A stretch of DNA of 51,620 nt from contig CALKIP010000027.1 in assembly GCA_937995995.1 (NCBI GenBank), forward strand, positions 1 through 51,620. The letters are read 5' to 3'. Made by a program: the position numbers and the translations under genes. Position 1 is the stretch's first letter, and each line of letters opens with the position of its first letter. The notes under the pieces were generated by a model. That model made no database searches and was not told where the DNA came from. It saw nothing but the letters and a program-made list of their open reading frames with translations. This DNA is from an uncultured bacterium. Its GTDB lineage: Bacteria > Gemmatimonadota > Gemmatimonadetes > Longimicrobiales > RSA9. Below are positions 13,018 through 41,918 of this stretch, piece by piece.

Positions 13018-13066
13018 TACCGACCACGCCCGAGCCCTTTGCGCCGACTGGGTCCCCTACACCTAC

Positions 13067-22974: not shown

Positions 22975-22989
22975 CGCTGTCGCGGCGCG

Positions 22990-23481
22990 TCAGTCGCCGG
23001 CCGCTTCGCCGGGCTCCAGTTCGGCCGCGCGCAGCCCCAGACGACGCAGCAGGCGCATGGCCTCGGCCTTCTCTTCCGCATCGAGCCCCGAGAGCGCGCG
23101 CTCGAGGGCGCGCACGTGCTCCGGGAAGATGCGACGGATCAATGCCTCGCCCTCGGGCGTGAGTGCGGCGTACGTCGCGCGCCGATCCGTTGGGCACGGC
23201 TGCCGCTCCACGAGTCCGCGCTTGACGAGTCGGTCCATCAGGTACGTGATCCCGCCACTCGAGACCAGGATCTTGCGCTGCACCTCGCCCAGCAGGAGTG
23301 GACCCTTGTGGTAGAGCGCCTCCAGGACCCCGAACTCGGCAAGCGTCAGATCGTGGCGTGCGACGTCGGCGCGGGCGTGAGCCTGAACGGCATCGTAGGC
23401 GCGGGCCAGGATGATCCACAGCCTCAGCGTCGGGTCGCGGTCGTCGTCGACCGGCGCGAACAATTCCTTCTCCGTACTCAT
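22990..23481 (-). CDS. MarR family transcriptional regulator
   Basis: ORF 22990..23520, start at MSTEKEL. Winged-HTH region LTLAEFGVLEALYHKGPLLLGEVQRKILVSSGGITYLMDRLVKRGLVERQPCPTDRRATYAALTPEG. Confidence 0.88.
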   Translation of the reverse strand: MSTEKELFAPVDDDRDPTLRLWIILARAYDAVQAHARADVARHDLTLAEFGVLEALYHKGPLLLGEVQRKILVSSGGITYLMDRLVKRGLVERQPCPTDRRATYAALTPEGEALIRRIFPEHVRALERALSGLDAEEKAEAMRLLRRLGLRAAELEPGEAAGD

Positions 23482-23585
23482 CTCAGCTCTAAGATAAGTC
23501 GTGGGGTCGGTGCGCGTCAAGGGGGCTCATGCGGGAGCATGCCGCGACGGGTCGTGGACGGGGCCCGTCGGTGGCGAGGTGAGTG

Positions 23586-27614: not shown

Positions 27615-29864
27615 ATGCAGCGAAGCACGATCTTTCTCACCTTTCTGGCACTCGGCGTATTGACTTCAGCGTGGCTCCCCCGCCCTGACGCCGCACTCGC
27701 CCGTACGGTGGACGGCTCGGCGGACGTGGCGGCGGACAGTGCCACGATCCAGGGCAGGATCACGAGTGCGGAAACGGGCCAGCCGCTCGCGGGCGCCCAG
27801 GTCCGTCTCGTCGAACTCGGCCGGAGTGAGCTCGCACATGGGAACGGTGAGTTCCATTTCAAAGGGCTGCCCGCAGGGCTCTACACGCTCGAGGTCGAAT
27901 ACATCGGACACCGCACGCTGACGCGCTCGGTCGAGGTTCCGAACGGCGGTGAGATCTGGGTCGACGTCGTCCTCGATTTCTCGCCGATCCAGCTCCCGGG
28001 CTTCGTCGTCACCGGCGCGGTCGGCGCGCGGGCGGGGGAGGAATCGTTGCGCCCGACGAACGTGGTCTCGGCACAGAAGCTCGCGCGTGAGCTCGGTGGC
28101 ACGGTCGCCGAGACGCTCGAGGACGAGCCCGGCGTGGCGCTCGCCTCGATGGGACCGGCCACGGCGCGGCCGGTGATCCGCGGCCTGAGCGGAGATCGCA
28201 TCCTCATGCTGGAGGACGGTCAACGCGTGGGCGATCTCTCGTCCACATCCTCCGACCACGCCGTCGCCATCGACCCGATCTCAGCGCGTCGCATCGAGGT
28301 CGTACGCGGCCCGTCCGCTCTGCTCTACGGCAGCAACGCACTCGGTGGCGTGGTCAATGTGGTGCGTGAGGAGGTGCCTACGTCACTCCCGGACCGGCCG
28401 ACCGGGACGGTGAGCGTGCAGGGCCAGTCGGTCGTGGGTGAGGGCAGCGCGATACTGCACGCGTTCGGCCCCGTCGCCTTGCGCGTCGAGGGGAGTGCCC
28501 GCAGCGCGGATGACCTTACCACTCCCGTCGGCACGCTCGAGAATACCTGGACGCGCACCTACAACGCCGGGATCGGTGCGGGGTGGATCAACGGCTGGGG
28601 TCACGCGGGGGTGGCGTACCGCTACTTCGATTCATCGTACGGGATCCCGGGCCATGACCATGGTCATGCGGACGGTGTCGAGGTTCGGATGAACCGCCAG
28701 GCGGTGAAGGGTCAGGCGCGGCTCCTCGATGGTGCCGGCCCGTTCAGCTCGCTCGAGCTGGATGGCGTCTACACCCGATACCACCATCAGGAACTCGAAC
28801 ACGGCGGACTGCTCGGCACCGAGTTCGGTCTGCTCACCGCGGCGGGAGAGGTGCTCGGCAGGCACGATGGATGGGGGGCGTTCGATCACGGCGCCGTCGG
28901 CATGCGCGTCGAGTGGCGCGACTTCGCGACCGCCGGCTCGCTCGGCACGCCGTCGGCACGCGAGTACGCGATCGCGGGCTACAGCGTCCAGGAGCTCGAC
29001 TTCGACCGCTTCCGCCTCGAGTTCGGCGCCCGCTACGACTGGCACCGGGTCGAGCCGCTCGACACCGTGACCGAGCTCGACATCGGCCGAGTTCGGTCGA
29101 GGTCGTTCGGCTCGGTCTCCTGCTCCATCGGGGCACTCTACGAGTTGGCCGACGGCGTCCGGCTCGGCGCGAGCGTTGCCCGCGCCTACCGCACGCCCGA
29201 CATCGGCGAGCTCTATTCGCAGGGTCCGCACCTGGCGTCGCACTCCTTCGAGGTCGGCGATCCGGACCTGAAGGCGGAAACCGGTCTCGGTGCGGACGTC
29301 TTCGTGCGCCTCACGCGAGATAACGTGGATTTCGAGGTCGCCGGCTTCCACAACCGGATCCAGAACTACATCTATCCGCGCAACACCGGCAAGGTCCGCC
29401 TCGGGGTGGGGCTTCCGATCTACCAGCACACCAACGCGGACGCGGAGCTGACCGGGCTGGAGGCCAGTGCGCAGTGGACGCTGACGCCGCGCCTCGTCGC
29501 CGACGGCACGATCTCCTACGTGCGCGGCACGCTCACGGATACCGATGAGCCGTTGCCGTTCATGCCGCCGCTGAACGGCGGGCTCAACCTGCGCTACGAG
29601 AAGGCGTCGTTCTTCGCCGGTGCGGGGTGGAAGGGGGCGCTCGAGCAGGACCGGGTGGGCGAGTTCGAGACGCCGACCGACGGCTACGGCGTCTTCCACG
29701 CCTCCGCGGGCTACCGCTGGAATCTCTGGAGCCGCGTCCACTCGCTGACGCTGCGCATCGACAACCTGACCGACGCGGAGTACCGCAACCATCTCTCGCG
29801 GATCAAGGATGTCATGCCCGAGGCCGGGCGCAACGTGAGCCTGCTCTACAGGGTTACTTTCTGA
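27615..29864 (+). CDS. TonB-dependent outer-membrane receptor with N-terminal carboxypeptidase-regulatory-like domain
   Basis: 749 aa. Signal peptide; CarboxypepD_reg-like IQGRITSAETGQPLAGAQVRLVELG; plug motif IEVVRGPSALLYGSNALGGVVNVV; C-terminal ...NVSLLYRVTF. Confidence 0.92.
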   Translation: MQRSTIFLTFLALGVLTSAWLPRPDAALARTVDGSADVAADSATIQGRITSAETGQPLAGAQVRLVELGRSELAHGNGEFHFKGLPAGLYTLEVEYIGHRTLTRSVEVPNGGEIWVDVVLDFSPIQLPGFVVTGAVGARAGEESLRPTNVVSAQKLARELGGTVAETLEDEPGVALASMGPATARPVIRGLSGDRILMLEDGQRVGDLSSTSSDHAVAIDPISARRIEVVRGPSALLYGSNALGGVVNVVREEVPTSLPDRPTGTVSVQGQSVVGEGSAILHAFGPVALRVEGSARSADDLTTPVGTLENTWTRTYNAGIGAGWINGWGHAGVAYRYFDSSYGIPGHDHGHADGVEVRMNRQAVKGQARLLDGAGPFSSLELDGVYTRYHHQELEHGGLLGTEFGLLTAAGEVLGRHDGWGAFDHGAVGMRVEWRDFATAGSLGTPSAREYAIAGYSVQELDFDRFRLEFGARYDWHRVEPLDTVTELDIGRVRSRSFGSVSCSIGALYELADGVRLGASVARAYRTPDIGELYSQGPHLASHSFEVGDPDLKAETGLGADVFVRLTRDNVDFEVAGFHNRIQNYIYPRNTGKVRLGVGLPIYQHTNADAELTGLEASAQWTLTPRLVADGTISYVRGTLTDTDEPLPFMPPLNGGLNLRYEKASFFAGAGWKGALEQDRVGEFETPTDGYGVFHASAGYRWNLWSRVHSLTLRIDNLTDAEYRNHLSRIKDVMPEAGRNVSLLYRVTF

Positions 29865-29987
29865 TTCTCGGTACTCTATTGGGCGAGCGCGGGCTCGAGG
29901 GCGGGGGTTGCCTCGCCCCGCCCGCGACTCGGGCCGGAACGCCAGCGTTCGGCCCGCGCCCGATTCGAGCGCATGAAGGAAGGGACG

Positions 29988-30473
29988 ATGAACATTCGAC
30001 GAATCTCCGGCTTCCGGGCCGGTGCTCTCTTCGCGGTCGCCCTCGGTCTCGTGGCCGGTGCGTGCGACAACCCGGTCGATCCGGGTGAGCACGGTCACCA
30101 CCCCCACGCCGAGGCGGTCGTGGTCCGCCTCGATGGCGAGATCCTCGCGACCGCCGAGGGCACTGACGGCAACCCGGAGACACGCAACTCGACCGGCTCG
30201 ATCGAAGTCCCCGCCGGTGGGATCGTGGGCCTCCTCGAAATCGAGTTCGTGGATCACGACGGCCACGCGCTCGATCTCGATGATGATGATGCGTCCCTCG
30301 GCGTCATCGTCGACGACGAAACGGTCGCCACCTTCGACCCGGACCCCAAGGGCGGGTTCGCGGGCCGCGTCCACGGCCACACAGCGGGATCGACCACGAT
30401 CTCGTTCATCCTCATGCACGGCGACCATGCGGAATTCACGACCGAGCCGATCGTGATCGACGTGCTGGAGTAG
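29988..30473 (+). CDS. His-rich lipoprotein, unknown function (candidate periplasmic metal-binding partner)
   Basis: Lipobox LVAGAC, then DNPVDPGEHGHHPHAE and further His residues (HDGH, HGHTAG, MHGDH). AAGGAAGGGA lies upstream of ATG 29988. Located immediately downstream of the TonB-dependent receptor. Confidence 0.6.
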   Translation: MNIRRISGFRAGALFAVALGLVAGACDNPVDPGEHGHHPHAEAVVVRLDGEILATAEGTDGNPETRNSTGSIEVPAGGIVGLLEIEFVDHDGHALDLDDDDASLGVIVDDETVATFDPDPKGGFAGRVHGHTAGSTTISFILMHGDHAEFTTEPIVIDVLE

Positions 30474-30525
30474 TCCCGGCCACACGCCGCATGGCGGCAA
30501 GAAAGTTGCACCGGCGGCGCGTGTC

Positions 30526-31338
30526 ATGGACACTGCCCGCCGGATCCCAACCGAAGTCCCGAGTCCCGCCCCTGCCGACGGCGAGGTGCGTCGGGCGCGC
30601 GCGGTGGTCGAGAGGCTCCGTGCGCGCTTCCACGGTCACTGCGCGGAGCGGGGGCGACCCTTCATCACGCTGAGCTACGCCCAGAGCCTGGACGGCTGCA
30701 TCGCGGCCTGCCGTGGCCGTCCCCTGGCGCTGAGCGGGCCCGACGCCCTCGTGCTGACGCACCGGCTCCGCGCGGTCCACGATGTGATCGTGATCGGCAT
30801 CGGCACACTCCTCTCCGACGATCCCCGGCTGACGGTCCGCCATGTGGAGGGAAGGAGCCCCCGCCCCGTCGTCCTGGACAGCCGCCTTCGCACGCCGACC
30901 TCGGCGCGTCTGCTCTCCCACCCGAACCATGGCCCCGTAATCGCCACGACGAATGCCTCCGATGCCCGTCGACAGGCAGAGTTGGAGGCCGCCGGTGCCC
31001 GCGTCGTGCGGCTGGCATCGGACAGGCGCGGCTGGGTTTCGCTCGTCGCACTCGGCGAGTGGTTGTACGCCGAGGGTGCCAGGAGCGTGATGGTCGAGGG
31101 CGGAGCCGAGGTCATCACGAGCTACCTGCGGGAGCGCCACGTCGATCATCTGCTGCTGACCGTCGCCTCGATGATCGTGGGCGGAGTGCGCGCGGTCGGA
31201 CCACTGGCCACGGCCGGGGACGGACACGGCATGACCCCCGGGCAAGAAGAGTGGGCGCCGCGCCTGGCCGAGATGGAGTCGTTCCGCCTGGGCGACGACG
31301 TGGTACTCAGCGGCGTGCCGGTCTGGGCGGCGCCGTGA
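30526..31338 (+). CDS. RibD C-terminal domain (pyrimidine/pterin reductase-like, DHFR-fold) protein
   Basis: 270 aa. FITLSYAQSLDGCIA...VLTHRLRAVHDVIVIGIGTLLSDDPRLTVR...SVMVEGGAEVITSYL is typical of RibD_C reductases. Confidence 0.75.
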   Translation: MDTARRIPTEVPSPAPADGEVRRARAVVERLRARFHGHCAERGRPFITLSYAQSLDGCIAACRGRPLALSGPDALVLTHRLRAVHDVIVIGIGTLLSDDPRLTVRHVEGRSPRPVVLDSRLRTPTSARLLSHPNHGPVIATTNASDARRQAELEAAGARVVRLASDRRGWVSLVALGEWLYAEGARSVMVEGGAEVITSYLRERHVDHLLLTVASMIVGGVRAVGPLATAGDGHGMTPGQEEWAPRLAEMESFRLGDDVVLSGVPVWAAP

Positions 31339-32504
31339 GCCCGCCGGCGCTCGTCGCACCTCGCACCGGACGGATCATCGAGCTCTCCGGTCCACGAGCG
31401 GTGCGGGTGGTCGAGGAGCCGGTGCCCGCTCCGGGTCCCGGCCAGGTGGGCGTGGTCACGCGTGTCTCGGCGATCTCGGCGGGAACCGAGCTCCTCGTCT
31501 ACCGCGGGGAGCTTCCGGAGGACGCACCGCTCGACGAGGCGATCCCTGCACTGGACGGCCGCTTCTCGTGGCCGGTCCGCTACGGCTACGCCACCGTCGG
31601 CACGGTCGTGGAGACGGGGCCAGGTGTGGAACGAGAGCTGATCGGCCGCAGCGTCTTCGCCTTCCAGCCGCACTGCGAGCGCTTCGTGGCACCCGTGGGC
31701 GCGGTGGTCCCGATCCCGGACGAACTCGATGCCGAAGCGGCCGTCCTGCTGCCGAGCGTCGAGACCGCGCTCGGCCTGGTCATGGACGGGCGCCCGCTGC
31801 CGGGAGAGCGGGTGCTGGTCATGGGCCAGGGCGTGATCGGCCTGCTCACCACGGCGATCCTGGCGACGATGCCGCTCTCCGCTCTCGTCGCCGTCGACCC
31901 GCTCGTGGAGCGCCGCCGCCGCGCACTGGAGTTCGGGGCGAGTGCGGCCGTGAGTCCCGAAAATGGCCCTGCACTCCGCCGCTGCCTCGGTGCACGCGGC
32001 GATGGGCCGGGCCACGAACGGAAGTCCGCGAGAGGCTCCGAGAGCGTGGCGCCAGGCGACGGTGCGCAGGGTACCCTCGACGCGAGTGACCTGGGTGACC
32101 TGGATGCGGTGGATGCGGTGGATGCGGTGGATCGCGCGGATCTGACCTTCGAGCTGACTGGCAACCCGGCCGCACTGGATGTCGCGATCCGCGAGACGGG
32201 TCGGGACGGACGGATCGTGGTCGGCTCGTGGTACGGCACGAGGCGGGCGACGGTCGACCTCGGCACGCATTTCCACCGCGGCCGCCTCACCGTGCGTAGC
32301 AGCCAGGTCAGCCGGATCGACCCGGCGCTGCGTGGGCGCTGGACCAAGGCCCGGCGCCTTGCATTCGCGCTGGATCTGATCCCGCGGCTGAGGCCGGAGC
32401 GGCTGGTGACGCACCGATTTCCCGTCGCGCGGGCGGCCGAAGCGTTCCGCCTCCTCGACGAGGCGCCGGAGCACACTCTTCAGGTCCTGATCACCTACTC
32501 CTGA
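31335..32504 (+). CDS. MDR-superfamily (Zn-dependent alcohol dehydrogenase-like) oxidoreductase with a low-complexity insertion
   Basis: The GTG start overlaps the upstream stop (GTGA). GroES-like N-terminus, Rossmann motif VLVMGQGVIGLL. A ~55-aa Gly/Asp-rich insert contains DLGDLDAVDAVDAVDRAD. Confidence 0.8.
   Translation: MSPPALVAPRTGRIIELSGPRAVRVVEEPVPAPGPGQVGVVTRVSAISAGTELLVYRGELPEDAPLDEAIPALDGRFSWPVRYGYATVGTVVETGPGVERELIGRSVFAFQPHCERFVAPVGAVVPIPDELDAEAAVLLPSVETALGLVMDGRPLPGERVLVMGQGVIGLLTTAILATMPLSALVAVDPLVERRRRALEFGASAAVSPENGPALRRCLGARGDGPGHERKSARGSESVAPGDGAQGTLDASDLGDLDAVDAVDAVDRADLTFELTGNPAALDVAIRETGRDGRIVVGSWYGTRRATVDLGTHFHRGRLTVRSSQVSRIDPALRGRWTKARRLAFALDLIPRLRPERLVTHRFPVARAAEAFRLLDEAPEHTLQVLITYS
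32086..32139 (+). repeat. In-frame 9-bp tandem repeats inside the dehydrogenase gene
   Basis: GTGACCTGG x2 (32086-32103), ATGCGGTGG x3 (32104-32130), and a degenerate ATCGCGCGG (32131-32139). Confidence 0.9.
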
Positions 32505-32604
32505 CCCGTCATGATGGAGCGGACTCATGACCACCTCGACGGAGCCGATGGCCCGCACCTCCACGGAGAGCCACCCACGCGGTGATCCTCGCCTCGAAGA
32601 GGGC

Positions 32605-32985
32605 ATGTACGGCATCGGGGTCAGGCGCGAATTCGTCGCCCAGCACTTCCTGACCGCGGGTGTGCCGGGGCCGGAGCACACCTGGCATTCGCACCGCTAC
32701 CGGCTCGAGCTCGTCGTACACGGCCGGCGGCTCGATGAAGCCGGCTACCTCGTGGACATCGAGCGGAACAAAGCCAACCTGGAACGGCTCGTCGGACGCT
32801 ACCGGGACAGGACGTTGAACGAGTTGGCCGAGTTCGAGGGGATGAACCCGAGCCTCGAGCACTTCGCGCGGATCCTCGGGGTGCAGCTCGCCGGCACCGC
32901 CGATCGGGAGCGGATCGAATGCATCCGGGTGGTGCTCTGGGAGGACGACGATGCCTGGGCGAGCTGGGAGGCGAGACCGCAATGA
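32605..32985 (+). CDS. 6-pyruvoyl-tetrahydropterin synthase / QueD family protein lacking the catalytic Cys
   Basis: Within ORF 32527..32985. FVAQHFL and WHSHRY supply the His triad positions. GYLVDIERNKANLERLVGRYRDRTLNEL parallels the QueD GWIIDFAELK...LDHHYLND. Glu occupies the position 4 residues before H-x-H, where QueD has Cys. Confidence 0.8.
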   Translation: MYGIGVRREFVAQHFLTAGVPGPEHTWHSHRYRLELVVHGRRLDEAGYLVDIERNKANLERLVGRYRDRTLNELAEFEGMNPSLEHFARILGVQLAGTADRERIECIRVVLWEDDDAWASWEARPQ

Positions 32986-34802
32986 CGAGCCCACGCGTCC
33001 ATTTCCTGATCCCCGGCTCACTCGAGCGACGGAGCGGCGGCACGATCTACGACGCGCGCATCGTCGCCGCGCTGAGAGAGCTCGGCCATGACGTCGTCGT
33101 GTATGAACTCGACGGGCGCTTCCCCGCTGCCGATGCGATCGCACGCACGGCCACGAGGCAGGTGCTCGCCCGGGTGCGGCCGGGCGAGGTCGTGGTCGTC
33201 GACGGTCTCGCACTCCCCGCACTCGACCTCTCCGCCTGGCCCATGGCCGCCACGTGCGTGCCGTTGCTGCATACGCCCGTCGGAGAGATGCGCGGCCCCT
33301 CCGAGGTGGATCGAGCTCCGCTAATCGCCAGGGAGACGGCGTGGCTGCACCGTGCGGACAGGATCGTCGTCACGAGCGTCTACAGCGCCGAGCGGCTGGT
33401 CGGGCGCGGGGTCGATGCTCGTCGGGTCGGTGTGGTGGAGCCGGGTATCGATCCAGTAACCTCCACACCCGATGGCGCCGGAGTAGCCGAGGTCCGTATC
33501 CTCGCGGTCGGCGCGGTCACGGCGGTCAAGGCGCACGACGTTCTCGTACGCGCACTGGGCCGGCTCCGCCACCTGCCGTGGCGGCTTCGAATCATCGGGA
33601 GCACGGACGAGGAGCCGGGAACGTCACGTGCGCTCATGGACGAGATCGAGCGGCTCGAGCTTGGCGACCGAGTCGAGCTTTCGGGTGAGTTGTCGCCGCA
33701 CGAGATGCCCGGTGCCTACCGCGCGGCCGATGTCTTCGTGCACTCTTCGCTCTACGAGAGCTACTGTTTGGCGCTCGCCGAGGCCGCAGCACACGGCTTG
33801 GCTCTCGTGGCGACGACCGCAGGCGCGATACCGACCACGCCCGCGGGGCGCGCGGCCGTATGCGTGCCCCCGGGCGATGCCGAGACGCTGGCACGCGCGC
33901 TCGAGCCGGTGCTGCGCGATGCTGATACGCGGCGTCGGCTCGCCATCGCGGCGCGTGAGGCGGCGGAGCGGCTGCCGACGTGGGAGGAGGCCGGCCGGCG
34001 TTTCGCCGATGAGCTGTCCGGATCGTCCGAAGCGACGTGGGCTCGCACGCGAGCCGCGGCTGGACCCGAGATCGGGGAGACGGCCAGGGTGGCGGTGTTC
34101 GAGCGGATGGCCGGCGAGTGGGATGCACTCGAGGATCCCCGCACCGAACTGGGAGCCGACGCCACCGCTCGCGTGGATTTCCTGCGCACCTTGTGCACCG
34201 CCGGGGCACGCGTCCTCGAGGTGGGGTGCGGGACCGGTGTGAACCTCGTCGGGCTCGCGGACCGGATCGACAGCGGAGTAGGCGTGGACTTCGCACCCGC
34301 AATGGTCGACCGGGCACGGGAGGCGGCGCGGCGATGCGGCGTGGACAACCTGCGTTTCGTCGTGGGCGATGCACGCTCTCTCGATTCGGTACCCGACGCC
34401 AGCGGTCCCTTCGACCTGGTCCTCCTGGCCGGCGTCCTCGAGCACATCCCCGAGCGCGGCCGGGTGCTCCGGGCGTGCAGAGAGCGGCTGGCCACCGGTG
34501 GAACGCTCGTCGTGATCATGCCTCACCCGGCCAATCCCACATTCATGTGGCGGCGCCTCGTCACCGGGCGCCCACCACGCATCTTCGTGTCGGACCTGCA
34601 CATGAGGCCGAACGAACTGGCTCGCCTGGCCCGGGCCCACGGCCTCGACCGCGTACGGGTCCACCCCCTGCCCTTCCGATCCACCTTCGACGACGACCCG
34701 CCGCGACCGGTCTGGCTCGGTCGCATCCTGCGCGGTCTCGACCGGATCCCGGCCTCGGCTACCCGGGGTGCTTTCGCGCTGGTACTGAAACGGGTGGATT
34801 GA
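32982..34802 (+). CDS. Fusion protein: GT-B family-1/4 glycosyltransferase (N-terminal) plus class I SAM-dependent methyltransferase (C-terminal)
   Basis: The ATG overlaps the upstream stop (ATGA). GT region VFVHSSLYESYCLALAEAAAHGLALVATTAGAIP (EX7E-like). MT motif I VLEVGCGTGVNL, with later LLAGVLEHIPE. It is a single uninterrupted 606-aa ORF. Confidence 0.85.
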   Translation: MTSPRVHFLIPGSLERRSGGTIYDARIVAALRELGHDVVVYELDGRFPAADAIARTATRQVLARVRPGEVVVVDGLALPALDLSAWPMAATCVPLLHTPVGEMRGPSEVDRAPLIARETAWLHRADRIVVTSVYSAERLVGRGVDARRVGVVEPGIDPVTSTPDGAGVAEVRILAVGAVTAVKAHDVLVRALGRLRHLPWRLRIIGSTDEEPGTSRALMDEIERLELGDRVELSGELSPHEMPGAYRAADVFVHSSLYESYCLALAEAAAHGLALVATTAGAIPTTPAGRAAVCVPPGDAETLARALEPVLRDADTRRRLAIAAREAAERLPTWEEAGRRFADELSGSSEATWARTRAAAGPEIGETARVAVFERMAGEWDALEDPRTELGADATARVDFLRTLCTAGARVLEVGCGTGVNLVGLADRIDSGVGVDFAPAMVDRAREAARRCGVDNLRFVVGDARSLDSVPDASGPFDLVLLAGVLEHIPERGRVLRACRERLATGGTLVVIMPHPANPTFMWRRLVTGRPPRIFVSDLHMRPNELARLARAHGLDRVRVHPLPFRSTFDDDPPRPVWLGRILRGLDRIPASATRGAFALVLKRVD

Positions 34803-35083
34803 GCGCGTAGCTGGGTGCACTGGTTTCGCTCGTGCGCGGAGCGTCGGCGGTGCAAGTGCTCTCCTGCACGGGGCGGCAACGCTCCGGCGGTGCACACCCC
34901 ACCTTGTATCCCGACCCCAGAACACCGAATCTTCCTGAATCCCGAACCATGTCGGTCTACATTCGCGACCTGGATGGGCATCGCATCGAGCCGCTCCAAC
35001 CGAGCGAATTGCTCGAACAGTCCTCGCCGTGACTCAACGCATGCGGCCGTGACCCGTCCGGCGCATACCACCAGGTAAGAAGC

Positions 35084-36634
35084 ATGAGAGACGAGAACCG
35101 CACGACTGCGGAGGAGCAACTCGAGCCCGGAAGCCCTTCGCGCCCGGAACTCGAGCCGCGTCCGGAGGAGACGCTCGACCCGGCGGACTGGGAGGAGCTA
35201 CGTGCTCTGGCGCACCGCATGGTCGACGACGTCATCGACTACCACCGCGGGGTGGGTGCGCGGCCGGCGTGGCAGCCGATGCCCGATGCGGTGCGTGGCG
35301 CGCTCGGCGATCCACTCCCGGATGTCGGCCAGGGTGCCGAGCGTGCCTACGTGGACTTCCGCGAGCAGGTCCTGCCCTACCCTTTCGGCAACATCCACCC
35401 GCGCTCGTGGGGGTGGGTGAACGGGACGGGGACCACGCTCGGCGCGCTGGCCGAGATGCTCGCCGCATCCATGAACCCGAACCTCTGGGGCGGAGAGCAC
35501 GCTGCGGCGTACGTCGAGGCCCAGGTCCTCGCCTGGGCGCGGCGAATCATCGGCTTCCCGGACGAGGCGAGTGGTGTGCTGACCAGCGGTGCCTCGATGG
35601 CCAACCTGATCGGTCTCGCGGCGGCGCGGGAGGCACGGGGCGGCGATGACGTGAGCGGGCGCGGGCTGCACGCACTGCCCGAGCCACTCGTCGTCTACGG
35701 CTCCGAGCAGACGCACAACTCCGTGGACAAGGCGGCGAGCCTCCTCGGGATCGGGTGGGCGGGGTTCCGCAAGATCCCGACGGATAGTGAGTTCCGCATC
35801 GACGTCGAGGCGCTGGAAGCTGCGATCGCCGCGGACAGGGCCGCGGGCCGGCGGCCGATCTGCGTGGTCGGCAATGCGGGGACGGTCAATACCGGCGCGA
35901 TCGATGACCTGGCGCGCCTGGCCGACCTCTGTGAGCGCGAGGGGCTCTGGTTCCACGTCGACGGCGCGATCGGCGCCCTGGCCGCACTCTCGCCCGCGCT
36001 GCGCACGCAGATGCGTGGGATCGAACGCGCGGACTCCGTCGCCTTCGACCTGCACAAGTGGCTCCACGTCCCGATCGAGGCCGGGTGCGTGCTGGTGCGC
36101 CACGCCGAGTGGCACCGCCGGCCCTTCTCCCCGCCCGCGAGCTACCTCTCCTGGTTCGAGCGGGGACTCGCCTCGGGGCCGCACAACTACATGAACCTGG
36201 GACCTCAGCTCACGCGTGGGTTCCGGGCACTCAAGGTCTGGATGGTGCTGAAGGCGCACGGGACGGAGACGTACACGCGCCTCATCGAGCAGAACGTGCG
36301 TCAGGCGCGCCACCTCGAAGCACGGATCCGCGAGCACCCACGCCTCGAGCTCCTCGCGCCGGTGTCGCTCAACATCGTCGCTTTTCGCTATCGAGTGGAG
36401 GGGAGCGCAGGGGGAGCGTCGGAACTCGACGCACTCAATCGCGAACTCCTCATGCGGCTCCAGGAATCGGGCGAGGCCGTGCCGTCGGGGACTGTCGTCC
36501 GCGGCGTGTTCGCGTTGCGCGTGGCGCTCACCAACCACCGGACGCGGACCGAAGACCTCGACCGGCTAATCGATGCGGTGGTACGGACCGGCGATGCACT
36601 GGTCGAGGAGGCGCGGGTGGAGGCGGGCGCTTAG
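35084..36634 (+). CDS. Group II PLP-dependent decarboxylase (aromatic-L-amino-acid/glutamate decarboxylase-like)
   Basis: 516 aa. ...GVLTSGASMANLIGLAAAR..., the HVDGAIGA region, and the PLP-lysine motif SVAFDLHKWLHVP. Confidence 0.9.
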   Translation: MRDENRTTAEEQLEPGSPSRPELEPRPEETLDPADWEELRALAHRMVDDVIDYHRGVGARPAWQPMPDAVRGALGDPLPDVGQGAERAYVDFREQVLPYPFGNIHPRSWGWVNGTGTTLGALAEMLAASMNPNLWGGEHAAAYVEAQVLAWARRIIGFPDEASGVLTSGASMANLIGLAAAREARGGDDVSGRGLHALPEPLVVYGSEQTHNSVDKAASLLGIGWAGFRKIPTDSEFRIDVEALEAAIAADRAAGRRPICVVGNAGTVNTGAIDDLARLADLCEREGLWFHVDGAIGALAALSPALRTQMRGIERADSVAFDLHKWLHVPIEAGCVLVRHAEWHRRPFSPPASYLSWFERGLASGPHNYMNLGPQLTRGFRALKVWMVLKAHGTETYTRLIEQNVRQARHLEARIREHPRLELLAPVSLNIVAFRYRVEGSAGGASELDALNRELLMRLQESGEAVPSGTVVRGVFALRVALTNHRTRTEDLDRLIDAVVRTGDALVEEARVEAGA

Positions 36635-36646
36635 GCGCCCGCCGCC

Positions 36647-37018
36647 TCAGTCCTTCTTCCGCCCTTCCTGCCCCACGAAGACGTTCAGGACCGTACTCAC
36701 CAGTCCGATCACGATCCCGCCCAGGAGCGCCGCCCAGAAACCGCTCACGGTGAAATCAATCCCGAGCGCGCCGGCCAGTGCGCCCGTCAGCCACAACATG
36801 AGCGCGTTCAGGACGAAGAGGAAGAGGCCGAGAGTCAACAGGACCAGCGGACAGGTCAGCACCACCAGGATCGGACGCACGACGGCGTTCACGATGCCGA
36901 AGACGAGTGCCACGCCAAGTAGCCCGCCGATGCCGCCCTGGTATTCGATCCCCGGCACCAGCGCCACGGCCACCCAGAGCGCCACGGCCGTGACCAGCAG
37001 TCGGATGATGAAGCCCAT
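36647..37018 (-). CDS. DUF360 / phage-holin-4-2 family small membrane protein
   Basis: Only the last 123 aa (MGFIIRLLVTAVALWVAVALVPGIEY...) of the 591-aa ORF 36647..38422 look real. Four TM helices; the rest is antisense to hmuY. Confidence 0.8.
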   Translation of the reverse strand: MGFIIRLLVTAVALWVAVALVPGIEYQGGIGGLLGVALVFGIVNAVVRPILVVLTCPLVLLTLGLFLFVLNALMLWLTGALAGALGIDFTVSGFWAALLGGIVIGLVSTVLNVFVGQEGRKKD

Positions 37019-37229
37019 GCCCCTCCTCACATTCTCGGTTAGGCGGATGATCGGATGCACATAGCCGGGTGAGCGTGGGCTCTCCCGTGCCGCAGATGCG
37101 AAGCCCCCGCGCCACGGTAGGCTCCAGCTTCCGCCAGCCAGATTGACGCCGCAACCCCCGATGCGCAAGCGTCTCCATCTACCCTCTTGACAACCCGGAC
37201 CCGCATGGCGTACCGTGACGCCATCGTGA

Positions 37230-37249
37230 TGAGAATGAGTTTCAATTTC
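37230..37249. promoter_or_regulatory. Candidate Fur box upstream of the hmuY-like operon
   Basis: GAGAATGAGTTTCAATTTC matches 13/19 of GATAATGATAATCATTATC, and TGAGAATGAGTTTCA fits the 7-1-7 core at 11/14. It is a local AT-rich island ~90 nt upstream of the hmuY-like start. Confidence 0.4.
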
Positions 37250-37336
37250 ATGTCGCTGTCGGCGTGGAATGCGAGAGGGGCGTGCCGGGCGGTGAGGAGC
37301 GAACCCTTGGGGTGTGTGGAGATCCGGAGGAGTCAG

Positions 37337-38383
37337 ATGCGAGTCGGGATATCGTTTCGATGTGCATGCGTCGTGACCGCGCTGATCGTGCTTACGGCGT
37401 GTGGGTCGGATGGCGACCCGGTGGGTCCAGATGTGCCGGACGTCGCCACGCTGACGGTCGATGCGTCGGAAGGCTGGGCATACGTGCGGTTGGGCGAGGA
37501 GGCGCAGCGGGTGACGGTGGGCGATCCGTCGCAGTCGGCGGACTGGGACCTCGCCTTCCACTCCACGTCGGTGATGCTGAACGGCGGCAACGCCGGGCCA
37601 GGCGGCGTGGTCGGTCACTGTCTGTGCCAGAACGCCGAGGCGAGTGATGCGGAGGTCGTGGCGATGACGGCGGCGTCGGAGCTGGACGCGTTCCTGGATG
37701 TGGGTGCCGCGGATGTCCCGACGTCGGAGGACGCGTGGATGTCGGATGCGCTGGTCCCGGTGATCGACGGCTGGTACGCGTACGATTTCGCGACGCACAC
37801 GGTCTCGGCAGCGCCCGAGGCGGTGTGGGTGGTGCGCACGGCGGAGGGCGACACGTACGCGAAGTTCCACGTGATCGGCATCGACGGCGCGACGCAAGCG
37901 AACGCTGGACGGATCACGATCGAGTATGCACTCCAGCCCGAGGCGGCCGCGTCGATGGGCGAGCCGGACACCGCGGTCGTGGATGTGAGTGGCGGCCCGG
38001 TCCATTTCGATCTGGTCATGGGCGACGAGAGCGATGGCACGGACTGGGACCTCCGCTTCGAGGGTTACACGATCCGAGTGAACGGCGGTGTCAGCGGAGG
38101 GGGTGAAGCGGGTGCGGTTGCGGCCGGTGATTCGTTCGAGGCGTTCGAGGACGCGAGCGAGATCCCGTCGACGCTCTATCGTGGCGACACGTACGGCGGC
38201 GTCTTCGATGCGCATCGGTGGTATCGCTACGACCTCGAGGGCAATCACCAGATCTGGCCCACCTACGACGTCTACCTGATCCGTCGCGGTGCCGCGGTCT
38301 ACAAGCTCCAGCTGGTGGGCTATTACGGCGAGACCGGCGACTCTCGCCAGATCACGTTCCGCTACGCCCGGGTCGAGGAGTAG
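37337..38383 (+). CDS. HmuY-like lipoprotein (putative haem/tetrapyrrole-binding)
   Basis: GGAGGAG RBS and lipobox LTACGSD. Two internal repeats carry the HmuY-like signature (ADWDLAFHSTSVMLNGGNAGPGG and TDWDLRFEGYTIRVNGGVSGGGE). Confidence 0.7.
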   Translation: MRVGISFRCACVVTALIVLTACGSDGDPVGPDVPDVATLTVDASEGWAYVRLGEEAQRVTVGDPSQSADWDLAFHSTSVMLNGGNAGPGGVVGHCLCQNAEASDAEVVAMTAASELDAFLDVGAADVPTSEDAWMSDALVPVIDGWYAYDFATHTVSAAPEAVWVVRTAEGDTYAKFHVIGIDGATQANAGRITIEYALQPEAAASMGEPDTAVVDVSGGPVHFDLVMGDESDGTDWDLRFEGYTIRVNGGVSGGGEAGAVAAGDSFEAFEDASEIPSTLYRGDTYGGVFDAHRWYRYDLEGNHQIWPTYDVYLIRRGAAVYKLQLVGYYGETGDSRQITFRYARVEE

Positions 38384-38430
38384 CGGTGAGCGCCGTGCGG
38401 CGCACTCCGACCAGAGCGCCACGGCGGGCC

Positions 38431-40833
38431 ATGGCGCGGTGGGGGGATCGGGCAGTTTCGGTGTCGCGGGTGCTCCTCGCCTGCTCCGTAACGGTCCCTC
38501 TCACGCTCGTCTCTCCGGTCGCCCCGGTCGGTGCGGCGCATACCGTGTCCGCGGAAGCACGGGCGGTGTCTTTGGCGGCGCAAGAGGTGTCGCAGGAAGT
38601 GCCGGCGTCACCCGATGCGCGGGCCGCCGCGCGGTATTTGTCGGTCGTCCGTGGGCTCGTCGTCGAGGCGGGGAGTGGCCTACCGGTCGAAGGTGCCGAG
38701 ATCGTGCTGATCCCGCTCGACGTTCGGGGCGCCTCCGGTGATGCAGGTGATGAAGGACCTGCGGCGCGCGTAACGGACCGGCGGAGGTCCGGCGCGACAC
38801 CCGGATCGAACGGCGCGGCAGCGACTTCGAAATCGGCCACGACGGACGGTGTCCTCCCCGTGCCCGGCAGCCTCGCGGCGCTGAGCGGCGGCGATGGCGG
38901 CTGGCGCGTGGACCGAGTCGCGGCGGGCCGCTACCGCCTCGTGGTGCGGCACATCGGCTACGCGGAGCATGCGCGTGTGGTCGACGTCGCAGCGGGCGAG
39001 GAAGCCGTGCTGCGCGTCGTGCTCACGCCGCGGCCGCTCTCGCTCGACGCCGTGGTGGTCACGGCGTCGCGTCGCCTCGAGCGGCTCAAGGACGTCCCGG
39101 TGGCGACGGAGCTGGTGAGCCGGAGAGAGATCCAGGAGAGCGGCGCGTCGGATCTCTCCGCAGTGCTGGTCGAGCGGACGGGGATCACGCTCCAGGGCGG
39201 ACACCCCGTCGGCGCCGGCGTGATGATCCAGGGCTTCGGCTCGGAGCGCGTGCTGGTGCTGGTGGATGGGCAGCCGTTCATCGGACGTCTCTCCGGGCAG
39301 CTCGACCTCTCGCGCATTCCCACCTCGATGATCGAGCGGATCGAGGTGGTGAAAGGGCCGCAGTCGACGCTCTACGGCTCGGAGGCGATGGGAGGCGTGG
39401 TGAACGTGATCACGCGCTCGCCGGAACGCGGCGTGTGGACCGGCGGCATCGAGCTGACCGGCGGCACGAACGGCCGTCTCGACCTGGGCGCGAACCTGCT
39501 CGGCGGTGTCGGGCCGGTGGCGTACACCGTGGATGCGGGGCGTCGCACGGTCGAGCTGGTTCCGGGCAATGCGACCGAGAGCGGAGCGCTGGCCGAGCGC
39601 TGGGACGGGATGGCGAAGGCGCAGTGGCAGGCGTCGTCGTCGCTGTCGCTCTCCGCGTCCGCGCTGGTGCTGGACGAGCGGCAGCGCTGGCGGAGCGGGC
39701 AGCTCTACTACTTCGCGGACAACCGGCAGTGGGGCGCGCGGCTGGGCGCGGCGTGGACGCGTGGCGCCCACCGGCTGGTGCCGATGCTCTACGCCACGGA
39801 GTTCGAGCACCTCTCCCGGCAGGCCACAGCGCCGGAGCCGGTGGTGGGCACGGGCGAGGAGGAGTACCAGCGCCTCCTCCAGGCGGAGCTCCTCTACGGC
39901 TTCGACGGCGAGCGCTGGACCGTGGACGCGGGGGTCGAGGCACGCCGTGAGGCGATCACCTCCGAGCGGGTAGTGGGTGGCGACCGCGTGCTGCGCACCG
40001 TCGAGCCGTTCGTGCAGGCGACGCTAACGGGCGAGCGCTGGAGCGTGGTGCCGGGTGTGCGGCTCTCGTGGAGCGAGCAGTGGGGCACGCATTGGACGCC
40101 GCGGCTCGCCGCTCTCTTCCGCCCCCTGCCGAGACTCGCGCTGCGCGCCTCCGTGGGGCTCGGCTACCGCGCGCCCGGCTTCAAGGAGCTCTACATGGAG
40201 TTCCTGAACACCGGCCCCGGCTTCGGCTACCGGGTGCGGGGCAACCCGGAACTCGGCCCCGAGACATCGCGCAACGCGATGGTCGGGGTGGAGTGGACCG
40301 GTGACCGGCTCTATCTCAAGGGCCAGCTCTTCCACAACCGCTTCGACGACTTCATCGAGACCCACATCGTGGGCGACTCGAGCGGGTTCGATCTCTACAG
40401 CTACGGCAACATCGACGACGGCACGAGCCGCGGCGTGGAGCTGGAGGCCGGCGTGGCGCACGGCGGTCTTCGCCTGGAGGGCGGCTACGCCTACCTGCGC
40501 GCCGAGCGTGCCGGAACCGGCGAGGCGCTGCTCGGTCGGCCCACGCACTCGCTGCGCGGCACGGCGTCGTACGCGCTGCTGGTGGGCTTTCGCGTTTCGC
40601 TGACCGGCGTGCATACCGGCACGACGCCGGTGCGGCGGACGGAGGACGCCGTGGTCGAGCGAAACGGCTTCGCACGCTTCGACGTGCGCGCCGCACAGGC
40701 GTTGCCGTTCGGCTTCGAATTGTCGGCGGGCGCGGACAACGTGCTCGACGTCCGACCCGAGGAGTGGCCCGGCTACATGGGCCGCCAGTTCTATGTGACG
40801 CTCCAATGGCGCGGTGAGCGCGACGCCCGCTGA
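38431..40833 (+). CDS. TonB-dependent outer-membrane receptor with carboxypeptidase-regulatory-like domain
   Basis: ORF 38218..40833; start at ATG 38431 (or GTG 38386, directly after the hmuY stop). Plug motif IEVVKGPQSTLYGSEAMGGVVNVITR, followed by a beta-barrel. Confidence 0.9.
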   Translation: MARWGDRAVSVSRVLLACSVTVPLTLVSPVAPVGAAHTVSAEARAVSLAAQEVSQEVPASPDARAAARYLSVVRGLVVEAGSGLPVEGAEIVLIPLDVRGASGDAGDEGPAARVTDRRRSGATPGSNGAAATSKSATTDGVLPVPGSLAALSGGDGGWRVDRVAAGRYRLVVRHIGYAEHARVVDVAAGEEAVLRVVLTPRPLSLDAVVVTASRRLERLKDVPVATELVSRREIQESGASDLSAVLVERTGITLQGGHPVGAGVMIQGFGSERVLVLVDGQPFIGRLSGQLDLSRIPTSMIERIEVVKGPQSTLYGSEAMGGVVNVITRSPERGVWTGGIELTGGTNGRLDLGANLLGGVGPVAYTVDAGRRTVELVPGNATESGALAERWDGMAKAQWQASSSLSLSASALVLDERQRWRSGQLYYFADNRQWGARLGAAWTRGAHRLVPMLYATEFEHLSRQATAPEPVVGTGEEEYQRLLQAELLYGFDGERWTVDAGVEARREAITSERVVGGDRVLRTVEPFVQATLTGERWSVVPGVRLSWSEQWGTHWTPRLAALFRPLPRLALRASVGLGYRAPGFKELYMEFLNTGPGFGYRVRGNPELGPETSRNAMVGVEWTGDRLYLKGQLFHNRFDDFIETHIVGDSSGFDLYSYGNIDDGTSRGVELEAGVAHGGLRLEGGYAYLRAERAGTGEALLGRPTHSLRGTASYALLVGFRVSLTGVHTGTTPVRRTEDAVVERNGFARFDVRAAQALPFGFELSAGADNVLDVRPEEWPGYMGRQFYVTLQWRGERDAR

Positions 40834-40886
40834 GCGGCGCGCGTGACGACGCCTTCGACGAACCACGAACAGGAGAAAAGAGCACG

Positions 40887-41918
40887 ATGGAGAACAGCCC
40901 CTGCCCCGCCGCCGGTTCCGGCTGCCGGACCGCATTCGCGACGCCGCCGCGCCGCGCGATCCGAGCTGTTCGCCGCCTCGGAAGCCGGCTGGCGCTCGCC
41001 CTGACGCTCGCAGCCGTTCCCGTGGCGACGGGATACGCCCAGGAGACGAAGGCGGCCGGCGTGGTCGGCACCGTCGTGATCGCGCACGGCGGCGGACCGG
41101 AGTGGAACGCCGGCGTCGAGGAGGTCGTCTCGCAGGTGCGGACGGGCGGCCCGGTCGAGGTCAGCTTCCTGATGGGCCCCGGAGCCGCGACGCACCGCTT
41201 CCAGGATGCGGTGCAGCGGCTCGTCGACGCGGGCGCGACGGAGATCGTCGTCGTGCCGGTGCTGGTCTCGAGCCACAGCGGCCACTACGACCAGCTCTAC
41301 TATCTGACCGGCGAGAGAGACGAGATCTCGGAGGTCATGCTGCACCACCTGCACATGTCGGGGATCGAGCGTTCGGACGTGGAGGTGCCGATCCGGCTCG
41401 CGAAGGCGATGGACGACTCGCCCGAGGTGGCCCGCGTCCTGGCCGAGCGTGCGCTCGCCCTGGCCGATGCTCCTGAGGAGCAGGCGCTCTTCCTGATCGG
41501 ACACGGGCCGAACTCCGCCGAGGACTACGCCGAGTGGATGGCCAACCTCCGGCCGCTGGCCGACAGCGTGCGGGCGTGGACCGGATTCCGCGATGTCCGC
41601 GTCGGGCTGGTCCGCGACGATGCGCCCGATGCGGTGCGCGCGGAGGCGGTGCGGCGCGTGCGCGAACTGATCACGCTGCAGCACGAGGTGACCGGCCGCG
41701 ACGTCGTCGTGGTCCCGATCCTCGTCTCACGCGGTAGCGTCAGCAACGAGAAGTTTCCGCGCGACCTCGCCGGGCTGCCGATCGTCTACACCGGCGACGC
41801 CCTGCTACCGCACCCGGGGTTGGCGCGCTGGATCGAGGCACGGGTGGAGCAGATGGTGCCGAGAGTGGCAAGGACGGCGTCCGGGGCCGGCGGGATGGGG
41901 CCGGCACACTCGCATTGA
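40887..41918 (+). CDS. Secreted two-domain CbiX/SirB-like (class II chelatase fold) protein
   Basis: Signal peptide ...LALALTLAAVPVATGYAQE. Two CbiX-like halves (VVIAHGGGPEWN...IVVVPVLVSSHSGHY and LFLIGHGPNSAEDY...VVVVPILVSRGS). AGGAG RBS. Confidence 0.65.
   Translation: MENSPCPAAGSGCRTAFATPPRRAIRAVRRLGSRLALALTLAAVPVATGYAQETKAAGVVGTVVIAHGGGPEWNAGVEEVVSQVRTGGPVEVSFLMGPGAATHRFQDAVQRLVDAGATEIVVVPVLVSSHSGHYDQLYYLTGERDEISEVMLHHLHMSGIERSDVEVPIRLAKAMDDSPEVARVLAERALALADAPEEQALFLIGHGPNSAEDYAEWMANLRPLADSVRAWTGFRDVRVGLVRDDAPDAVRAEAVRRVRELITLQHEVTGRDVVVVPILVSRGSVSNEKFPRDLAGLPIVYTGDALLPHPGLARWIEARVEQMVPRVARTASGAGGMGPAHSH

Follow-up and report, generated by a model that had tools for sequence, protein, structure and literature searches.

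The window analysed here is a 51,620 nt stretch of DNA from an uncultured bacterium of the Gemmatimonadota (Longimicrobiales; RSA9), comprising positions 1 to 51,620 of contig CALKIP010000027.1 in GenBank assembly GCA_937995995.1. At 30526-34802 it carries a four-gene operon encoding a RibD_C-type pyrimidine reductase, a medium-chain dehydrogenase/reductase (MDR) predicted to lack zinc, a PTPS-like protein of the tunnelling fold (T-fold), and a single polypeptide in which a glycosyltransferase (GT) is joined to an S-adenosylmethionine (SAM)-dependent methyltransferase (MT). The gene set is a conserved functional unit, more than a chance neighbourhood, and across related loci its GTP cyclohydrolase (GCH) partner is of type II or III, never type I. 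We put at about even chances the reading that the operon belongs to a widely conserved, uncharacterised branch of the riboflavin pathway leading to a GTP-derived 2-aminopyrimidine or pterin-like glycoside, and hold any particular order of steps to be much less certain than that.

All four open reading frames (ORFs) were confirmed on the + strand. The RibD_C gene (30526-31338, 270 aa; Pfam PF01872, 8e-38) shares a GTGA stop/start overlap (31335-31338) with the MDR gene (31335-32504, 389 aa, GTG start), and the PTPS-like gene (starting at 32527 or 32605 and ending at 32985; Pfam PF01242, 3e-24) shares an ATGA overlap (32982-32985) with the GT::MT fusion ORF (32982-34802, 606 aa). Both 4 nt overlaps were read directly in the sequence and bear out the description of these genes, in an earlier reading made from the letters alone (the sequence-only reading), as co-oriented and translationally coupled. 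The short gap that it placed before the PTPS-like gene holds if translation begins at ATG 32527 (22 nt), and fails at the likelier start at 32605 (100 nt). The longer gap is probable because approximately 120 homologues begin at the Met encoded at 32605 in the alignment and because the 26 extra N-terminal residues of the longer form are modelled as disordered (AlphaFold, predicted local distance difference test (pLDDT) score ~50); the true start is therefore likely to be ATG 32605, giving a protein of 126 aa. The 78 nt 5′ extension differs from that of a 94% identical relative at just three positions, too few to place the start. A scan of 29800-37200 showed no promoter-like sites, and a terminator scan of the same interval returned three weak sites, not above the shuffled expectation and none at an operon boundary. 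Rfam models gave no match near the cluster, and in particular no flavin mononucleotide (FMN), tetrahydrofolate, preQ1 or SAM riboswitch, when the entire window was scanned together with seven loci from relatives, among them Chloroflexota, haloarchaea and Streptomyces.

Conservation of the gene set was examined using the family alignment of the PTPS-like protein (A1) as the query against a one-genome-per-species collection, which returned at least 572 loci, of which the best 80 were kept. The nearest named homologues are from Longimicrobiales. The hosts among the 80 loci are mostly Chloroflexota (Caldilineaceae, Anaerolineae, Dehalococcoidia), with other Gemmatimonadota (L001, L002, L026), metagenome-assembled genomes (MAGs) of Bacteroidota (L008, L024), a deltaproteobacterial MAG (L031), and the cultured haloarchaea Haladaptatus halobius (L006) and Natrinema sp. 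74 (L059); further hosts are Streptomyces (L082) and the alphaproteobacterium Thalassobaculum (L083). All-against-all clustering of ORFs placed the PTPS family in 79 of the 80 loci, the GT family in 73, the MDR family in 72, the RibD_C family in 62 and a 296 aa methyltransferase family in 58. These five families are co-oriented in the fixed order RibD_C-MDR-PTPS-GT-MT, which recurs in Chloroflexota, Gemmatimonadota, Bacteroidota and Deltaproteobacteria, and the MDR-PTPS-GT core is also present in haloarchaea, Streptomyces and an alphaproteobacterium. When only loci with a contig reaching far enough were counted and the same strand was required, the MDR gene was found upstream of the PTPS gene in 70/75 loci, with corresponding counts of 61/72 for RibD_C, 56/69 for GCH II, 61/75 for GT and 59/73 for MT. 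An in-frame start yielding the identical 4 nt RibD_C/MDR overlap is available in 35 of 62 loci, and the 4 nt PTPS/GT overlap recurs in the haloarchaeal (L006, L059) and Streptomyces (L082) clusters. The sequence-only reading had proposed one functional cluster, to be refuted if the genes failed to co-occur in other genomes; that refutation clearly fails, the same gene order and strand being found in most of the 80 loci. None of the genes mapped above threshold to a specific known pathway.

The identity of the cyclohydrolase partner bears directly on the substrate. In most Chloroflexota and Bacteroidota loci the ORF called as RibD_C is approximately 480 aa and is fused to an N-terminal GCH II (PF00925, 4e-66; PF01872, 2e-45), while in other loci a separate cyclohydrolase gene (ORF cluster c67) lies directly upstream; by tblastn, GCH II was detected in 59 of the 80 loci. 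The operon of Haladaptatus (L006) consists of an MT gene, a gene for a ~290 aa protein without a Pfam match, a GTP cyclohydrolase III gene (PF05165, 8e-87), and the MDR, PTPS and GT genes. The ~290 aa protein is found in both haloarchaeal clusters (L006:7207-8079 and L059:7722-8588), is 70% identical between the two genera, and contains a VVVTADHGE motif that recalls the alkaline-phosphatase/sulfatase superfamily; on this basis it is a possible phosphatase for the pathway. In all 56 cluster GCH II sequences the residue matching Tyr105 of E. coli RibA is likewise Tyr, and the GCH II of the Streptomyces cluster (L082:14919-15608) has Met there (KLRAMALQ). Met at this position reportedly stops SCO6655 at the N5-formyl intermediate, which is the product of archaeal cyclohydrolase III, a result credited to Spoonamore and colleagues in 2006. 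The two-step chemistry of the cyclohydrolase is described in PMC9478397. RibD_C is absent from exactly those examined clusters with a Met-type GCH II (L082) or a type III enzyme (L006). No E. coli FolE-like GTP cyclohydrolase I was found in the window, as the sequence-only reading had stated, or in 86 loci (tblastn, E ≤ 1e-3), a search that did not take in FolE2-type enzymes or the rest of the genome. A partner of type II or III implies that the scaffold would enter as the ring-opened 2,5-diamino- (or 5-formylamino-) 6-ribosylaminopyrimidinone 5′-phosphate and not as dihydroneopterin triphosphate. By tblastn, GCH II is also missing from the window, so the enzyme for the entry step must be encoded at another site in the genome.

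The RibD_C protein has no deaminase domain, its Pfam match being RibD_C only (residues 45-260 of 270). It scores marginally above the cut-off of the NCBIfam domain model TIGR00227 (151.1 versus 150.15 bits) and misses both the archaeal equivalog TIGR01508 (120 versus 186 bits) and eubacterial RibD (95.6 versus 156 bits). Its relatives in the PDB by sequence include reductases of archaeal and fungal type, among them the M. jannaschii enzyme (2azn, 6e-27) and 6p8c, 4ha7 and 9l1f, which are deposited as 2,5-diamino-6-ribosylamino-pyrimidinone 5′-phosphate reductases. At the position occupied by Lys in the bacterial-type RibD structure 7lrh, the archaeal enzymes have Asn and the window protein has Ser (TLSYAQSLDG); the equivalent Lys151 of B. 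subtilis RibG selects the deaminated substrate. The presence of Ser instead of Lys, together with the direct fusion of orthologues to cyclohydrolase II, favours reduction before deamination with the 2-amino group kept, and the protein would accordingly be expected to perform the NADPH-dependent reduction of 2,5-diamino-6-ribosylamino-4(3H)-pyrimidinone 5′-phosphate to the ribitylamino form.

The T-fold protein matches PF01242 and shows the beta-beta-alpha-alpha-beta-beta order of the T-fold/COG0720 family in its AlphaFold model (pLDDT 87). Its best PDB match by sequence is SCO6650 (3d7j, 2e-19), QueD and PTPS following at ~1e-4, and the same structure is the top Foldseek match of the model (target TM-score 0.85, root-mean-square deviation 1.9 Å), nearly all of the top 35 matches being PTPS/QueD-family entries. 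The zinc triad H40, H54 and H56, along with D77 and E139, is invariant in alignment A1, E139 being the conserved pterin-binding-type Glu of PTPS/QueD. In the register of the QueD catalytic Cys stands Glu50, in the motif GPEHTWHSH (ExxxHSH), and the resulting HEHHDE pattern is present in 201 of approximately 240 close relatives. Published signatures are CxxxHGH for PTPS-I, CxxxxxHGH for PTPS-II, ExxHGH for PTPS-III and FGPAQ for PTPS-IV. The protein does not fit PTPS-I (QueD), as the catalytic Cys is replaced by Glu and TIGR03367 gives 40.6 bits versus 89, and neither queC nor queE is among the recurrent neighbours of the cluster loci. Nor does it fit PTPS-II, there being no Cys upstream of the HxH pair (TIGR00039, 23 bits versus 125), or PTPS-III, because the spacing from Glu to the first His is four residues where PTPS-III has three, and Gly is replaced by Ser. 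The FGPAQ signature is also absent, the window protein having PGPEH and its relatives WGPEN, whereas the PTPS-IV-type neighbourhood (PF00925 and PF01872) is present in the form of RibD_C in the window and GCH II in the related loci. SCO6650 and the Thalassobaculum protein carry FGPAQ and lack Glu50 and His56, yet are found in the same MDR-PTPS-GT-MT context, and comparison of these residues places the window protein in what appears to be a zinc-retaining sister clade of PTPS-IV. Its zinc/Glu active site is apparently catalytically competent; that Glu can serve as a base in the T-fold is suggested by Plasmodium PTPS structures deposited as mutants of an "E37 catalytic residue". The family has 4,677 representatives at E ≤ 1e-3 and 1,062 at E ≤ 1e-10. 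No informative domain fusions were found among 150 family representatives, the long proteins being tandem PTPS repeats only; P0175 (855 aa), P0217 (488 aa), P0223, P0230 and P0259 each have two or three tandem PTPS domains in a single polypeptide.

The MDR protein matches the Pfam families ADH_zinc_N (2.9e-07) and ADH_N (0.0023) below their cut-offs, and resembles BchC (NCBIfam, 4e-18) without belonging to it (TIGR01202, 65.6 bits versus 291). Its relatives in the PDB and NCBIfam are polyol and secondary-alcohol dehydrogenases, the PDB matches being to polyol and threonine dehydrogenases over the Rossmann domain only. When aligned with E. coli Tdh (alignment A2), seven of seven cluster MDRs show the replacements Cys38 to Ser, His63 to Tyr and Glu64 to Ala, and none of them has the structural-zinc Cys4 loop, which is deleted. 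They retain the dinucleotide-binding GxGxxG (NAD(P) site VMGQGVIGLL in the window protein), and the residues point to a zinc-less enzyme in which both zinc sites have been lost. A lineage-specific low-complexity insertion of ~50 aa (32028-32180; alignment A2, Tandem Repeats Finder) contains a perfect 9 bp tandem repeat, TGGATGCGG, in 3.6 copies (32101-32132), encoding DAVDAVDAV; a Bacteroidota homologue (L008) has a similar VDAVDAA stretch in the equivalent place.

The sequence-only reading was also right that a single polypeptide fuses a GT-B glycosyltransferase to a SAM methyltransferase. The N-terminal domain (residues ~1-345, 32982-34016; Glyco_trans_1_4, 2.6e-25) matches Glycos_transf_1 at residues 172-326 (87 bits versus a cut-off of 26, 1e-24) and has the E-x7-E motif ESYCLALAE, consistent with the retaining GT-B enzymes of CAZy family GT4. 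NCBIfam matches to MshA (4e-19) and EpsE (4e-25) are both far below their cut-offs, and membership of the MshA and BshA equivalogs is missed (68.7 versus 462 bits and 37 versus 274 bits). The relatives in the PDB are a protein deposited as Tll1590, MshA and PimB′, all far below family cut-offs, and no pteridine glycosyltransferase is among these PDB sequence matches. The domain is 33.5% identical to the GT of the Streptomyces cluster. The C-terminal domain (residues ~372-560, 34095-34802; Methyltransf_11, 3.9e-18) matches Methyltransf_25 at residues 411-507 (70 bits versus 27, 2.8e-19) and has the class I motif I VLEVGCGTG. An identical 606 aa protein is encoded on contigs L085 and L086 from two other sequencing runs, and L081, a relative with a 94% identical PTPS-like protein, has the same 606 aa architecture and Pfam domains; the fusion is therefore genuine and not an assembly artefact.

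In other lineages, stand-alone GT orthologues of ~350 aa predominate, and GT and MT are adjacent genes in most clusters. Two unrelated MT families serve these clusters. Type A comprises the 296 aa Chloroflexota gene, the 256 aa Thalassobaculum gene and the C-terminal halves of the Streptomyces 479 aa gene and of the L084 fusion, and type B (Methyltransf_11 type) comprises the window domain, a separate adjacent gene in L001, the haloarchaeal gene and MT276 of L084. The window MT is 63% identical to the separate L001 (Longimicrobiales) MT, 33-35% identical to the haloarchaeal MT and 31% identical to MT276. Among 64 strong GT homologues a clear GT::MT fusion was found only in the window's own cluster and in P0447 (L084), and as the two use different MT families (type B and type A, respectively), the fusion appears to have arisen twice independently. 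Two independent fusions, in addition to the adjacency of the genes elsewhere, are good evidence that GT and MT act on the same molecule.

The following pathway is proposed; both its product and all chemistry downstream of the reductase are inferred. GTP cyclohydrolase II, in the window's genome supplied in trans, would open GTP, and the Rib7/ArfC-like RibD_C enzyme, lacking a deaminase, would yield 2,5-diamino-6-ribitylamino-4(3H)-pyrimidinone 5′-phosphate. This compound would keep the 2-amino-4-oxo face recognised by T-fold pterin enzymes and would be, in effect, a ring-open, reduced dihydroneopterin phosphate. Remodelling of the polyol-phosphate side chain would come next, through the zinc-less MDR and the zinc/Glu T-fold enzyme. 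In the preferred version, oxidation of the C2′ hydroxyl would give a keto-amine, the 5-amino group would close the pyrazine ring to form a dihydroneopterin-phosphate-like pterin, and the T-fold enzyme would act on what is left of the phosphorylated side chain by acid/base chemistry of the PTPS type; in an alternative that is about equally plausible, the T-fold enzyme would act first and the MDR would reduce the resulting carbonyl. Finally, the GT4 domain would add a sugar and the fused MT would methylate the product. Cyclohydrolase I makes the corresponding keto-amine by Amadori rearrangement, and an aldose-to-alditol-to-ketose sequence occurs in the polyol pathway, where the second enzyme is also an MDR. 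Condensation of 2,5-diamino-6-ribosylaminopyrimidinone with a dicarbonyl gives a pterin and is the basis of an assay in PMC9478397.

Several observations weigh against this proposal. The 80 loci are not independent samples, as they are dominated by related Chloroflexota and phylogenetically clumped, and ORF calling was mechanical. The entry step rests on relatives, the window having no cyclohydrolase, and the RibD_C protein finds its top PDB match in 7lrh, a RibD of bacterial type whose specificity residue is Lys (ILKLA). The Streptomyces and haloarchaeal clusters have no RibD_C, and the reductase may be accessory or supplied in trans. Glu50 and His56 are missing from the Streptomyces and alphaproteobacterial T-fold proteins, so that the T-fold step must in some lineages proceed without zinc chemistry unless the pathways themselves are different. 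With both of its zinc sites apparently lost, the MDR is not assured of a polyol-dehydrogenase mechanism; its role might rather be the reduction of a carbonyl that the T-fold enzyme generates. A sequence in which the ribosyl group is first reduced and C2′ later re-oxidised is also a detour.

Among other explanations, a classical pterin-glycoside route, in which a GTP cyclohydrolase I encoded elsewhere makes dihydroneopterin triphosphate that passes through the PTPS-like protein and a reductase to glycosylation and methylation (as for biopterin glucoside, cyanopterin and tepidopterin), is considered distinctly unlikely. The PTPS fold with its intact zinc site and pterin-binding-type Glu is compatible with such a route, cyanopterin carries a methylated sugar that would fit the GT-MT pair, and the known pteridine glycosyltransferases are also group-1 GT-B enzymes (PMC5683033). 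However, in 86 loci the conserved partner is a cyclohydrolase of type II or III and in no case a FolE-type I enzyme, the T-fold protein has no catalytic Cys and its motif fits none of the PTPS-I, -II and -III signatures, a riboflavin-type RibD_C fused to GCH II would have no role, and the reductase is an MDR, not a short-chain dehydrogenase/reductase (SDR) of the sepiapterin reductase type. On these grounds (no FolE-type GCH I, no catalytic Cys, MDR not SDR) the analogy drawn by the sequence-only reading with cyanobacterial and Chlorobium pterin glycosides was not upheld; from its broader idea of a modified pterin, a pterin-like end product may still hold, but would have to be reached by a different route than GCH I and PTPS. 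A further alternative is ordinary cofactor supply, with RibD_C serving riboflavin or F420 (FO) synthesis, the T-fold protein acting as a PTPS-IV enzyme in F420 synthesis and GT::MT glycosylating the cell envelope, a combination that we regard as very improbable. In its favour are F420 production by many host groups (Actinobacteria, Chloroflexota, haloarchaea), the marginally passing TIGR00227 score of RibD_C and a 2016 review that, citing unpublished work, assigns PTPS-IV a part in F420 synthesis (PMC5041015). Against it, GT and MT stay beside the T-fold gene across phyla and domains, with gene overlaps and two fusions; deaminase, lumazine/riboflavin synthase and recognised F420 genes were not noticed among the annotated subset of neighbours; no FMN riboswitch lies upstream in the window or 7 loci; and the window T-fold protein is not of the PTPS-IV motif type.

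A lipid head group was also considered, in which a GTP-derived polyol phosphate would be the acceptor of a cytidine diphosphate (CDP)-alcohol phosphatidyltransferase, a PimA/MshA-like GT4 would glycosylate it, much as phosphatidylinositol is made and converted to its mannosides, and the product would be flipped outward, the window encoding the soluble half of the system; this is thought unlikely. It draws on CDP-OH_P_transf, LPG_synthase_TM and small membrane protein genes that adjoin the cluster in 16-20 Anaerolineae-type loci in two arrangements, on CDP-OH_P_transf and LPG_synthase_TM genes in the Streptomyces cluster and an LPG_synthase_TM fragment in L084, and on the nearest characterised relatives of the GT, which act on polyol phosphates or phosphatidylinositol. 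To our knowledge no lipid with a pyrimidine or pterin head group has been described, no such membrane genes are present in the 51 kb window or in the Caldilineaceae, haloarchaeal and Thalassobaculum clusters, and in some lineages the membrane genes may simply belong to an unrelated lipid operon next door. A Bacteroides inositol-lipid cluster, on the other hand, pairs the same two membrane families (PMC9246714). Loci with the membrane genes are L009, L012, L014, L017, L027, L029, L030, L032, L041, L047, L050, L053, L055, L057, L067 and L075, example coordinates being L067:4055-5236, L082:7980-8765 and 13052-14269, and L084:2-295; the small membrane protein beside the cluster is ~113 aa with a weak DUF7475 match, and LPG_synthase_TM is MprF flippase-like. 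A bolder scenario that joins the proposed pathway to a lipid, namely a GTP-cyclohydrolase-I-independent pterin route via a 2′-keto (Amadori-type) intermediate that cyclises to a dihydroneopterin-phosphate-like compound, with a glycosylated, methylated product that would be the head group of a new class of membrane lipid in lineages with the CDP-alcohol transferase and flippase-like genes, is unlikely; if true, it would supply the long-missing function of PTPS-IV and its relatives. It is barely conceivable that the genes serve in anti-phage defence or conflict, by modifying nucleic acid or by producing a signal derived from a nucleotide. The GT matches Pfam GT4-conflict (3.8e-09) and the MT domain matches the PADLOC model mad2 (1.8e-23), but both matches are generic and at the level of domains, PADLOC found no other component among five proteins (the other four having no match), and the neighbours are metabolic, with conserved chromosomal synteny near housekeeping genes. 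The defence reading was rejected, as PADLOC gave a generic MT-domain match only.

Downstream of the operon, 281 nt past the GT::MT ORF, lies a gene for a group II decarboxylase dependent on pyridoxal 5′-phosphate (PLP) (35084-36634, + strand, 516 aa; Pyridoxal_deC, 1.7e-63), whose membership of the cluster is uncertain and whose nearest NCBIfam model is diaminobutyrate decarboxylase (220 bits versus a cut-off of 900). All Gemmatimonadota loci examined (L001, L002, L026, L081, L085 and L086) have this gene downstream of the GT, and no decarboxylase was found beside the GT in other phyla among the loci examined. Because the synteny of L001 and L002 with the window extends far past the cluster, this linkage is inseparable from shared ancestry, and the decarboxylase is outside the conserved core; the sequence-only reading had left its membership undecided, and the linkage holds within Gemmatimonadota only.

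Directly upstream of the cluster (27615-30473) are a TonB-dependent receptor and a lipoprotein, which were excluded as cluster members, both being absent from L001. The region past the decarboxylase (36650-41918) probably forms a unit for the uptake of haem or tetrapyrroles; it encodes a small membrane protein of the holin family (- strand), an HmuY-like protein, a TonB-dependent receptor and a CbiX-like chelatase. A siderophore reading of the TonB receptors, HmuY and the diaminobutyrate-decarboxylase-like enzyme was rejected, since none accompanies the cluster beyond this phylum. A YceI-like protein and a MarR regulator are encoded at 22294-23520, ~7 kb upstream of the cluster, and in Thalassobaculum (L083:5097-6516) a YceI gene and a PadR regulator lie directly upstream of MDR-PTPS-GT-MT, which may be a coincidence. 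Elsewhere in the window, yidC (- strand), dnaA (8790-10175) and dnaN (10450-11565) lie within 5859-11565, at the cumulative GC skew minimum (~8-11 kb), so the origin region of chromosomal replication falls inside the window. At 44316-49431, two large PAS-GAF histidine kinases listed as 799 and 994 aa are encoded side by side; their longest ORFs overlap by ~270 nt, and the start of the second is probably farther downstream.

The sequence-only reading knew of no characterised pathway with this gene composition, and none was found in the searchable literature, nor was a functional study of this cluster or of PTPS-IV; the cluster has been noticed previously by bioinformatics and is biochemically orphan. 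Partnership with cyclohydrolase II/III and a deaminase-less reductase turns a vague "pterin-like" guess into a specific substrate, obtainable commercially or by enzymatic synthesis, and hosts of the cluster include cultured organisms amenable to genetics, namely Streptomyces, Thalassobaculum sp. OXR-137, Haladaptatus halobius and Natrinema sp. 74. Should the product prove to be a pterin, biology would have a second way of making the pterin ring; a lipid head group would mean a new lipid class; and with neither, the pathway would still be a widespread unknown branch off riboflavin metabolism.

Several known systems invite comparison. The cyanobacterial and Chlorobium pterin glycoside pathway follows a like logic, in that a 2-amino-4-oxopyrimidine scaffold made from GTP is handled by a T-fold side-chain enzyme, a reductase and a GT-B glycosyltransferase of group 1, but its enzymes are different or divergent at every step: it uses GCH I, a PTPS with Cys and an SDR, whereas window-type clusters have GCH II/III, RibD_C, a Glu-type T-fold protein, a zinc-less MDR and an additional MT. 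The early riboflavin route of archaea and fungi (GCH II/III, then ArfC/Rib7 acting before deamination) is reproduced by the GCH II::RibD_C fusions and the haloarchaeal GCH III, although that route uses no MDR, T-fold protein, GT or MT, and no later riboflavin genes were seen in the cluster. PTPS-III, of the Plasmodium and bacterial folate bypass, is likewise a T-fold zinc enzyme with Glu replacing Cys, but has ExxHGH where the window protein has ExxxHSH; SCO6650 is a much nearer relative of the window protein than any PTPS or QueD is, and folate genes form no part of the genomic context. Toxoflavin-type pathways also branch from the first riboflavin intermediates (GCH II, RibD-like) with SAM methylation, but their clusters have no T-fold, MDR or GT genes, and nothing in the window cluster resembles ToxC or ToxD.

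The closest counterpart is the Streptomyces cluster around SCO6650, a PTPS-IV member of COG0720 (3d7j) that is the nearest solved relative of the window T-fold protein by sequence and fold, and that, as the only solved relative, has been of "function unknown" since 2008, the release year of the PDB entry. Its crystal structure paper is said to report no zinc and no PTPS activity. A neighbourhood-network study from 2017 ties PTPS-IV to PF00925 and PF01872, mislabelling PF00925 as FolE2 (PMC5445326). The layout in L082 is a divergent CDP-alcohol phosphatidyltransferase gene followed by MDR, PTPS, GT4, MT, LPG_synthase_TM, orf187 and GTP cyclohydrolase II; as in the window, an MDR (46% identical over 166 aa) is encoded upstream of the T-fold gene and a GT4 and then an MT downstream. 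SCO6650 has FGPAQ and lacks Glu50 and His56, whereas the window family has the His triad and Glu at the catalytic position. The Streptomyces cluster also differs in having no RibD_C, a Met-type GCH II, the other MT family, and the CDP-alcohol transferase and flippase-like genes, while the window has RibD_C, no cyclohydrolase and the GT::MT fusion. The window adds a form of the cluster that combines a T-fold enzyme that retains its zinc ligands, a RibD_C gene translationally coupled to the MDR gene, the absence of an in-cluster cyclohydrolase, and the fusion of GT to MT.

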